Below, one piece after another: positions 1-1,227 of a DNA stretch of 1,227 bases (the stretch's first letter is position 1; each line of letters starts with the position of its first letter). A program made the position numbers and the translations under genes. The DNA is from Escherichia coli (GTDB lineage: Bacteria > Pseudomonadota > Gammaproteobacteria > Enterobacterales > Enterobacteriaceae): assembly GCF_003334815.1 (NCBI RefSeq), contig NZ_QOWO01000103.1; one strand, given 5' to 3'. The notes under the pieces were generated by a model. It made no database searches, was not told the origin of the DNA, and was given only the letters and a program-made list of their open reading frames with translations.

Positions 1-1038
1 CGCGTCGTAACGCGTCATCAGTTCGTTCAGGCGTTCTTCTTCCGCCTCCGTCAGCACCGCTTCCGGCTCCGGCAGACTGCGGTATGTTCCGGCATCCTCA
101 CGGCACTCACCGACAGGCTCCATGCGTCCGGCGCACCATTCCCAGCCTTCGGCTTCCCGAAGGTGTTCAGCGACAGCCTGGAGTTTTTCCAGCAGGGCAG
201 CATCGAGCGCAACACAGTCCACATAGCCACCCTCGTCGTCGCTGAACAAATCGGTGCGCAGTTCATCTGGCGAGAAGGCATCAGCCCCCACAAAGCGGAA
301 TTTAGTGTTCCCCGCCACCGCCACTTCACTTTCGGTCACCAGACGACGAATGGTCTGTACATCCGGTTTTCCGCCCCATCCCGACTGGCAGGCGGCTTCA
401 AACACCTGCACCTGACGCGCGGTGTCGTTCTCCAGCGCCAGCGCCTGACAGTGCTCTGTGGTGATGCGGTCTTCTGCCAGCGCATCGAGGATGACAGGCG
501 CAAGGTCTGCCAGTTTCAGCATTCGCTGAACGTGGCGGGGCGAATAGCCCAGCAAATCACCGATTTGTGCAGGCGTTTTGCCTTCCTGCGCCATCGCACG
601 GAATCCGGCAATCTGTTCGGCAGGGTGCATATCCCGACGATGACCGTTTTCAGTCATTGATGCGGCAGTCGCCAGCTCCTGCGGAATAACCTTCACGCGT
701 ACAGGCCAGTCAGCCGGAATGATGCCACGCTCTGCCAGCATGTTGAGTGCAGCCAGTCGGCGACCACCTGCGGCGACACCGTAACGGTCACCAGGCAGGG
801 TATGCACGACCAGATTCTGCAGCAGTCCGACGCCCTTAATGGACTCCGCCAGTTCGCTGACGGACTCCGCAGAATACGGCACCGTGCGCACATTCAGCGG
901 TGATTTAATCAGCGAGGCCAGCGGCACGCTCACTTCCTCCGTCTGCGCCAGCAGGGCAGACAGGACAGTTTCCTGCGTTTTTACAGATTTACGGCTTGCT
1001 TTGCGGGTGGTTTCTGGTTCACACTTCGTTACAGGCAT
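1..1038 (-). CDS. ParB-like nuclease-domain protein (ParB/Srx N-terminal domain plus HTH), N-terminal 346 codons; 3' end runs off the window
   Basis: Hand translation of the reverse complement in the frame whose codons occupy + positions 1-3, 4-6, and so on. That + frame has no TTA, CTA or TCA triplet from 1 to 1131, so the minus frame is open from the in-frame stop at 1134..1132 down to the window edge. The first in-frame ATGs are at 1044..1042 and 1038..1036. An AAGGGG Shine-Dalgarno at 1050..1045 sits 6 nt before the ATG at 1038 and directly abuts the ATG at 1044, so 1038 is preferred. The protein has a GGRRLAA motif (residues 91-97, nt 748..768) resembling ParB box II GERRxRA, preceded by LLQNLVVH, and an HTH-like segment TPAQIGDLLGYSPRHVQRMLKL (about nt 511..576). 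The family assignment is from memory of ParB-family motifs, not a database search. Confidence 0.85.
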   Translation of the reverse strand, partial: MPVTKCEPETTRKASRKSVKTQETVLSALLAQTEEVSVPLASLIKSPLNVRTVPYSAESVSELAESIKGVGLLQNLVVHTLPGDRYGVAAGGRRLAALNMLAERGIIPADWPVRVKVIPQELATAASMTENGHRRDMHPAEQIAGFRAMAQEGKTPAQIGDLLGYSPRHVQRMLKLADLAPVILDALAEDRITTEHCQALALENDTARQVQVFEAACQSGWGGKPDVQTIRRLVTESEVAVAGNTKFRFVGADAFSPDELRTDLFSDDEGGYVDCVALDAALLEKLQAVAEHLREAEGWEWCAGRMEPVGECREDAGTYRSLPEPEAVLTEAEEERLNELMTRYDA

Positions 1039-1044
1039 AATCAT

Positions 1045-1050
1045 CCCCTT
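1045..1050 (-). promoter_or_regulatory. Shine-Dalgarno (AAGGGG) for the ParB-like CDS
   Basis: The minus strand reads 5'-AAGGGG-ATGATT-ATG; the purine-rich hexamer lies 6 nt upstream of the ATG at 1038..1036. Confidence 0.5.
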
Positions 1051-1066
1051 ATAATTGCTTATGTCC

Positions 1067-1090
1067 TGCCGGACGTTCGCGCGTCCGGCA
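1067..1090. repeat. Perfect 9-bp inverted repeat TGCCGGACG-N6-CGTCCGGCA (potential stem-loop or operator) in the intergenic spacer
   Basis: Base-by-base check: + 1067-1075 (tgccggacg) is the exact reverse complement of + 1082-1090 (cgtccggca), with a 6-nt spacer ttcgcg. It lies 6 nt after the DUF905-like stop and about 16 nt before the SD of the ParB-like gene. No U/T tract follows it on either strand. Confidence 0.6.
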
Positions 1091-1096
1091 CCTCTC

Positions 1097-1227
1097 TTAC
1101 TTAAGAATCCCGAAATCCCTGATGTACTGGTTCATCCAGTACCCGGCACCGTCCTCAAAATTCCAGGAGCGCCAGATCAACGTGCCATCCTGACGGACAA
1201 CCAGGCGAAAATGCGTTCCCTGATCAT
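1097..1227 (-). CDS. Small DUF905/UPF0401-like protein, C-terminal 42 codons plus stop; 5' end lies outside the window
   Basis: The minus-strand frame with codons at 1225..1223 and onward translates to [42 protein letters not shown], then a TAA stop (+ strand 1097..1099). This resembles my recollection of the E. coli YkfF C-terminus (..DDQGSHFRLVVRD..WRAWNFE..NRYIR..GI..). It is co-directional with, and 58 nt upstream of, the ParB-like start. Only a partial sequence is visible and the family recall is from memory. Confidence 0.6.

Follow-up and report, generated by a model that had tools for sequence, protein, structure and literature searches.

The small gene whose 3' end lies in the Escherichia coli sequence analysed here is very probably the second gene of the leading-region operon of an IncK/IncI-complex plasmid, which runs ssb, DUF905, parB-like, psiB, psiA; that degree of confidence is a joint one, covering the identity of the gene, its placement in the operon, its proposed transcription from single-stranded DNA and the proposed role of a hairpin behind its stop codon. 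For identity and operon placement, as shown here or published, there is no contradicting evidence. The window, by which is meant the whole stretch of 1,227 nt (contig NZ_QOWO01000103.1), is coding only on its minus strand, where the last 42 codons of the DUF905 gene and its TAA (1097..1227) are followed by a 58-nt intercistronic spacer (1039..1096) and the first 346 codons of a 652 aa ParB-like gene (1..1038). The original prediction had thus picked out the 3' end of a known and routinely annotated small gene, a call that is correct but ordinary. The gene, its operon and the unusual promoter were already known, and a possible link to ParB has been raised in the literature; the additions of the present analysis are modest and consist of a U-less hairpin after the stop codon, the recognition of ssb as the steadier plasmid neighbour and the near absence of the family from phages.

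Identity of the DUF905 Gene

Translation of the minus strand from 1225 to 1097 gives 42 residues that contain the string quoted in the original prediction exactly, ending at a TAA codon (1099-1097); bases 1226-1227 belong to an incomplete codon, the ORF being truncated by the right edge of the window. The 42 aa fragment alone matches the Pfam family DUF905 (PF06006) with E=2.3e-20 over model positions 28-69 of 70, so the resemblance is not a chance one. The full gene, a homologue of ykfF/yfjA/yubL, was recovered from plasmids identical to the window (pE2863-1, locus L001), where it has 77 codons and is annotated as a 'DUF905 domain-containing protein'. Its 77 aa product matches DUF905 with E=7.8e-36 (model positions 2-69 of 70) and phrog_8779 with E=2.4e-35. 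The likeness of the C-terminal residues to the UPF0401/DUF905 family, which had been put forward with an HMM search and recovery of the whole ORF as its checks, was therefore borne out by fragment and full-length protein alike, the match being significant over most of the model length. The product also has the size (~70-90 aa), single domain and alpha-beta3-alpha fold of YkfF (PDB 2HJJ), and the gene is real and under purifying selection (dN/dS 0.13-0.48). Inside the coding sequence lies a 7-bp inverted repeat, GTACTGG / CCAGTAC with a 5-nt gap, at window positions 1124-1142; it may be fortuitous.

Plasmid Source and Order of the Leading Region

Many E. coli plasmids of the IncK/IncI complex carry the window with 100% identity. 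Of 5426 complete E. coli genomes, 3359 contain matches to it (4599 records), nearly all of the places being on plasmids, and DUF905 DNA occurs at 4525 plasmid places in this species; at least 5000 plasmids in PLSDB carry DUF905, most of them conjugative. Carriers of the window allele type as IncK2/Z or IncI-gamma/K1, with a MOBP relaxase and MPF_I mating-pair formation, and IncF plasmids hold the cassette at 84-90% identity.

In pE2863-1 the order of genes is DNA methylase, DUF1380, antirestriction, ssb, DUF905, the 652 aa ParB-like gene, psiB, psiA and ardA, with mobA/relaxase genes, and hence oriT, ~10 kb downstream of the DUF905 region. The F plasmid has the same order of ssb, DUF905 (77 aa), ParB-like gene (652 aa) and psiB. 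The run from ssb to psiA is transcribed towards oriT, as is expected of a leading-region operon, so that, given the known direction of transfer, the plus strand of the window would be both the transferred strand and the template. The ssb gene of pE2863-1, which lies beyond the window at L001 5314-5840, is marked as frameshifted in the annotation. In this lineage the gap from the ssb stop to the DUF905 start is 57 nt and in frame, and database entries that read as SSB-DUF905 fusions exist, such as A0A220SXH4 (274 aa); this entry and the noisy fused calls P0177 and P0183 look like stop-loss or frameshift artefacts.

The closest described counterparts are YfjA (YubL, UPF0401) of F and YkfF of IncI-gamma ESBL plasmids, which hold the same position between ssb and the 652 aa ParB-like gene. 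The F copy shares 82% amino-acid identity with the DUF905 protein of the window, and the copies of F and IncI-gamma plasmids have the same stem in the hairpin after the stop codon and the same Frpo-type element upstream of ssb. Differences from these plasmid copies are only allelic and fall in three patches (residues 37-40, 47-52 and 68-69); compared to the IncF copies, the window allele resides on different backbones, namely IncK2/Z and IncI-gamma/K1 (MOBP, MPF_I). The YkfF protein of E. coli K-12 (CP4-6 island, PDB 2HJJ) shares the fold, but is a chromosomal-island paralogue in a context of DUF905, DUF932, antirestriction, RadC and CbtA/YeeU genes, with no ssb, ParB or psiB.

Co-transcription and a Predicted Single-Stranded Promoter

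The leading-region operon is named 'ssi3' in IncI plasmids and 'Frpo2' in F. In the IncI-gamma plasmids its members are SSB, ykfF, yfhA (ParB-like), PsiB and PsiA (Benz et al. 2023, PMC10104558). The ssb, yfjA, yfjB, psiB and psiA genes of the F leading region are expressed transiently in new transconjugants from the single-stranded DNA promoter Frpo2 (PMC9849209); judged by gene order and position, yfjA would be the DUF905 gene and yfjB the ParB-like gene. The same study describes YfjA-, YfjB-, PsiB- and Ssb-sfGFP fusions that appear synchronously in transconjugants before the plasmid is double-stranded and then fade, and a deletion of Frpo2 that abolishes the Ssb and YfjA signals, as shown directly for those two fusions, while leaving the frequency of transfer between K-12 strains unchanged (Couturier et al., PMC9849209). 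RNA-seq after elimination of the donor found the same operons induced in F and in the IncI plasmid pESBL (PMC12672017).

The window and its surroundings agree with this arrangement. The 58-nt spacer, whose length had been read correctly in the original prediction, has neither a sigma-70-like promoter nor a hairpin-plus-U-run terminator, and neither was found on the coding strand from the ssDNA element to beyond psiA (L001 4900 to 10400). Upstream of ssb, the minus strand of L001 4940-5300 folded as ssDNA has a dG of -104 kcal/mol (z=-8.5 against shuffles) and contains on the transferred strand a Frpo-like hairpin ~240 nt long, the core of which can be aligned with the sequence ahead of ssb in F (Frpo2). 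A long imperfect hairpin of the Frpo/ssi type is what is expected ahead of such an operon, and it is the predicted promoter here; a search of Rfam with L001 4500-10500, window included, returned no match. Extension of the window to the right had been proposed as a way to recover the promoter of the ORF; the promoter is predicted not just beyond that edge but further away, ahead of ssb.

Co-transcription of the DUF905 and ParB-like genes is therefore supported, both by the lack of a sigma-70 promoter or terminator between them and by the published F data, and it was already in print; the proposal stands with the qualification that these are two of at least five co-transcribed genes. An intervening promoter or terminator, which would have spoken against the proposal, was looked for on the coding strand and none was found. 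In the plasmid of the window, the incoming single strand would thus serve as template for DUF905 along with ssb, the ParB-like gene and psiB/psiA; transient zygotic expression has been demonstrated in F and pESBL and, by homology, would extend to this plasmid. A sigma-70-like sequence (GTTACA, 16 nt, TATAAT; 10/12 matches) is present on the plus strand at window positions 1028-1055, antisense over the start codon and RBS of the ParB-like gene; it is probably fortuitous, since chance alone would put ~0.4 sites of this kind in the window.

A U-less GC Hairpin after the DUF905 Stop Codon

The original prediction was right that the spacer has no U-tract terminator on the coding strand, but overlooked a GC-rich hairpin (1067..1090, minus strand) that starts 6 nt after the DUF905 stop codon. 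The hairpin has a perfect 9-bp stem, UGCCGGACG / CGUCCGGCA, with its plus-strand arms at 1067-1075 and 1082-1090, and a 6-nt loop; as RNA it reads UGCCGGACG-CGCGAA-CGUCCGGCA, with an energy of about -17 kcal/mol, and it occurs once per locus. The stem is invariant across 10 plasmids in which the dS of DUF905 reaches about 0.3-0.4, so that there is no covariation within the window/F lineage, while loop and remaining spacer are free to vary. Diverged lineages have hairpins with different stems at the same place, GCCUGACGGAG / CUCCGUCAGGC in L020, GCCCUG(U)CGGAG / CUCCGCAGGGC in L022 and GCCCUGCCGGAG / CUCCGCAGGGC in L018, which argues that the structure is kept through paired changes. The case for conservation is built on folding of individual sequences, inspection and recurrence at the same position. 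Shuffle tests on single sequences were modest (0-84 of 1000 shuffles reach the observed energy of the hairpin), and MAFFT followed by RNAalifold across the hairpin lineages returned no structure, the lineages being misaligned in that alignment.

GC-rich hairpins lacking a U-tract are found in each intercistronic gap of the run ssb, DUF905, ParB-like gene and psiB, with comparable ones following ssb and the ParB-like gene (also L001 5861-5879 and ~8163-8185). The structure after DUF905 is probably an intercistronic element of the RNA, or of the T-strand DNA, and a role in the incoming DNA strand is conceivable. It would not be expected to terminate transcription and is more likely to be an RNA stabiliser or attenuator, which may set the ratio of the upstream products (SSB, DUF905) to the downstream ones (ParB-like, PsiB). 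A reading of the hairpin as a parS-like site is unlikely, because it is kept in L020 where the full ParB-like gene has been deleted, because it is single at each locus and because comparable hairpins with a different sequence come after ssb and after the ParB-like gene.

The hairpin could also be taken to uncouple the two genes, with most transcripts terminated after DUF905 and the ParB-like gene expressed separately. A stable structure (about -17 kcal/mol) only 6 nt past the stop codon would suit this, as would the chromosomal DUF905 copies examined (L008, L009 and L021), in which a terminator-type hairpin follows the gene, with a U run in L008 and L009. In the plasmid hairpin, however, the 8 nt that come after the stem contain no more than 2 U; the ParB-like gene has no promoter in front of it; and U-less hairpins of a similar kind also stand behind ssb and behind the ParB-like gene itself. 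In F, the YfjB and PsiB fusions are synchronous with those of YfjA and Ssb (PMC9849209). Uncoupling is accordingly a quite improbable explanation.

The ParB-like Gene and Its Link to DUF905

The start codon of the ParB-like gene (a homologue of yfhA/yfjB/parB2) is the minus-strand ATG at 1038-1036, and its reading frame is still open where the window ends on the left. The start codon is preceded by a Shine-Dalgarno-like AAGGGG (1045..1050, minus strand), read from the sequence, part of which, an AGG/GGGG purine run, is conserved among the aligned sequences. The product matches Pfam ParB_N at residues 41-131 (3e-7) and HTH_ParB at 136-222 (6e-8), and NCBIfam TIGR00180 with 64.2 bits against a cut-off of 58.45; with ParB_N followed by the ParB HTH, it belongs to the ParB/Srx superfamily. 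Only the first ~220 of its 652 residues match these known domains, ahead of an uncharacterised C-terminal region; none of the other 430 residues is matched by Pfam, yet 44% identity is retained there in a distant orthologue.

A functional link between the two genes had been proposed from their adjacency. In E. coli plasmids both of its junctions are almost universal, that of DUF905 with ParB being intact in 3985 records and that of ssb with DUF905 in 4360. In L022 (56% identity), DUF905, ParB, PsiB and PsiA are all retained. The order in L020 is SSB, DUF905, a 93 aa ORF (L020 5300-5581), PsiB and PsiA; the ORF begins with MSVTES as do the ParB-like genes of other plasmids and matches residues 590-634 of the ParB-like protein of the window plasmid (E=3e-9), and therefore looks like an internally deleted, in-frame ParB remnant. 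In L015-L017, SSB overlaps DUF905 by 8 nt and PsiB comes next; the ParB-like gene beside DUF905 is reduced in L015 to a few codons (~5287-5335), and a 648 aa ParB orthologue (44% identity) is located 3.5 kb upstream (1518-3464). L024 has SSB, DUF905 and Ral, so the SSB-DUF905 order is kept there as in L015 and L020; in L024, DUF905 overlaps by 4 nt a gene (837-1037) that matches the Ral antirestriction family (PF11058). Chromosomal-island copies of DUF905 have DUF932, antirestriction, RadC/JAB and CbtA/YeeU genes as neighbours, with neither ssb, psiB nor ParB beside them.

As the ParB gene has been deleted or moved in diverged lineages and is missing at the chromosomal copies, its adjacency is a lineage feature; ssb is the steadier plasmid neighbour of DUF905, and the common denominator of all the neighbours is a set of establishment and anti-restriction genes of conjugative and integrative elements. 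Of the proposed link, what stands is the adjacency in most E. coli plasmid copies, but a specific tie between DUF905 and ParB is weak; likewise, the co-conservation indicated by the intact junctions fails in L020, L015, L024 and the chromosomal copies.

A stronger version, a dedicated module of two proteins in which DUF905 serves the ParB-like DNA-binding protein (YfhA/YfjB/ParB2) as cofactor or regulator, is unlikely. The number of intact junctions is high relative to the 4525 plasmid places, adjacency extends to the diverged metagenomic L022, and an interaction between yfhA and ykfF was suggested by Benz et al., as yfhA supplied in trans had different effects on wild-type plasmids and on knockouts, ykfF being truncated in either case (PMC10104558). 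The same study reported repeated loss-of-function mutations in yfhA that raised the transfer rate in one host strain (PMC10104558). A dedicated module is hard to reconcile, however, with L020, where SSB, DUF905, PsiB and PsiA are kept and the ParB-like gene is a 93 aa remnant, with L015, where SSB, DUF905 and PsiB stand 3.5 kb from the ParB orthologue, with L024, where Ral follows DUF905, or with the chromosomal copies, where DUF932, an antirestriction gene and RadC follow instead of ParB; moreover, an operon shared by at least five genes does not single out ParB as the partner. The reduction of the ParB gene in L020 and L015 echoes the repeated yfhA loss of function in the evolution experiments.

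Family, Variation and Fold of DUF905

The DUF905 family is small: it comprises 383 clusters at 90% identity, and a set of 1.84 billion clusters at 50% identity contains 163 representatives of it. All named representatives come from Enterobacterales, to which the family is confined. Among 50,697 phage records only one partial match was found, and DUF905 is thus tied to conjugation rather than to phages. A 2026 survey found DUF905 usually near psiB/psiA and enriched in plasmids of narrow host range (PMC12826799).

Sequence variation is concentrated in the three patches at residues 37-40, 47-52 and 68-69. The alleles observed there (L001-L012) are QGTH/HGEQ/HGEH, QDGTLI/NNGAMV/NNSGLV and QY/HV/HA/RY, respectively; they look mosaic, the patches recombining in varied combinations across IncF and IncI/K plasmids with the rest nearly invariant. 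No invariant catalytic residue is present; in a cleaner alignment F41 is invariant, and W53, R46, N57 and G74 nearly so. Family members have net charges between -7 and +2, which speaks against a basic RNA-binding surface and equally against DNA mimicry of the ArdA kind.

Searches for relatives remained within the family. NCBIfam and PADLOC gave no match for DUF905; among the matches listed by Foldseek against AFDB50 essentially all were Enterobacterales DUF905 proteins, with no annotated distant relative, and no informative structural neighbour was found beyond the family itself. A scan of those DUF905 proteins that extend further at the N- or C-terminus revealed no fused domain. Of the long proteins in the representative search, the one checked (P0242) has Ig-like I-set repeats and shares the strand motif 'W.FRDGNG.WR' as a chance match. 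Weak phmmer matches to PLC-gamma1 suggested an SH2 domain, which was rejected, an SH2 fold with the FLVRES phosphotyrosine pocket not being present. No report of a biochemical function was found in the literature.

Possible Function of DUF905

Of the functions that could be ascribed to the protein, a non-enzymatic binding module that helps establishment in a host-dependent, non-essential manner, with a protein or nucleic-acid partner at the ssDNA/SSB stage rather than as a dedicated partner of ParB, is put forward as a tentative suggestion only. A more specific proposal makes DUF905 an establishment factor coupled to SSB and specific to conjugation, a small binding protein produced within the first minutes of entry that would act on the ssDNA/SSB/RecA stage or on a host barrier directed specifically at incoming single strands. 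This proposal, in which the U-less hairpin would be a cis element tuning relative gene dosage within the operon, is rather doubtful; the chromosomal copies, with no ssb or psiB alongside, weaken any model centred on SSB.

That DUF905 is an anti-defence protein, for example an anti-restriction protein, directly inhibiting a recipient immune system is an unlikely explanation despite the company it keeps, which includes SSB, PsiB, ArdA, antirestriction genes of the ArdB/KlcA type, Ral and orphan methylases. Leading regions are enriched in anti-defence genes, uncharacterised families there being candidates for the same role (PMC11541004), and the clustering of variation in patches 37-40, 47-52 and 68-69 would fit such a role. 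However, anti-defence genes are as a rule shared with phages, which have next to none of this family, and the family is restricted to Enterobacterales; the proteins are mildly acidic to neutral (net charge -7 to +2), which does not resemble a DNA mimic such as ArdA, and no experimental phenotype has been reported. It is very improbable that DUF905 is an RNA-binding protein or an mRNA interferase of the HicA kind, built on a dsRBD-like fold. The 'dsRBD-like' superfamily of HicA and YcfA-nrd intein proteins resembles DUF905 at the level of the fold only, with no sequence relationship, and DUF905 has neither the catalytic His/Gly and basic RNA-binding surface of HicA (YcfA) nor an adjacent HicB partner.

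DUF905 belongs to a cassette whose expression falls within the first minutes of plasmid entry into a new cell and which is among the most widely shared of enterobacterial resistance and virulence plasmids, being present in ~60% of the complete E. coli genomes in the collection. If the SSB-coupled proposal were true, adaptation to different hosts would account for the variable surface patches. The function of DUF905, once known, would fill a gap in the establishment programme of these plasmids and might explain host-specific rates of transfer.
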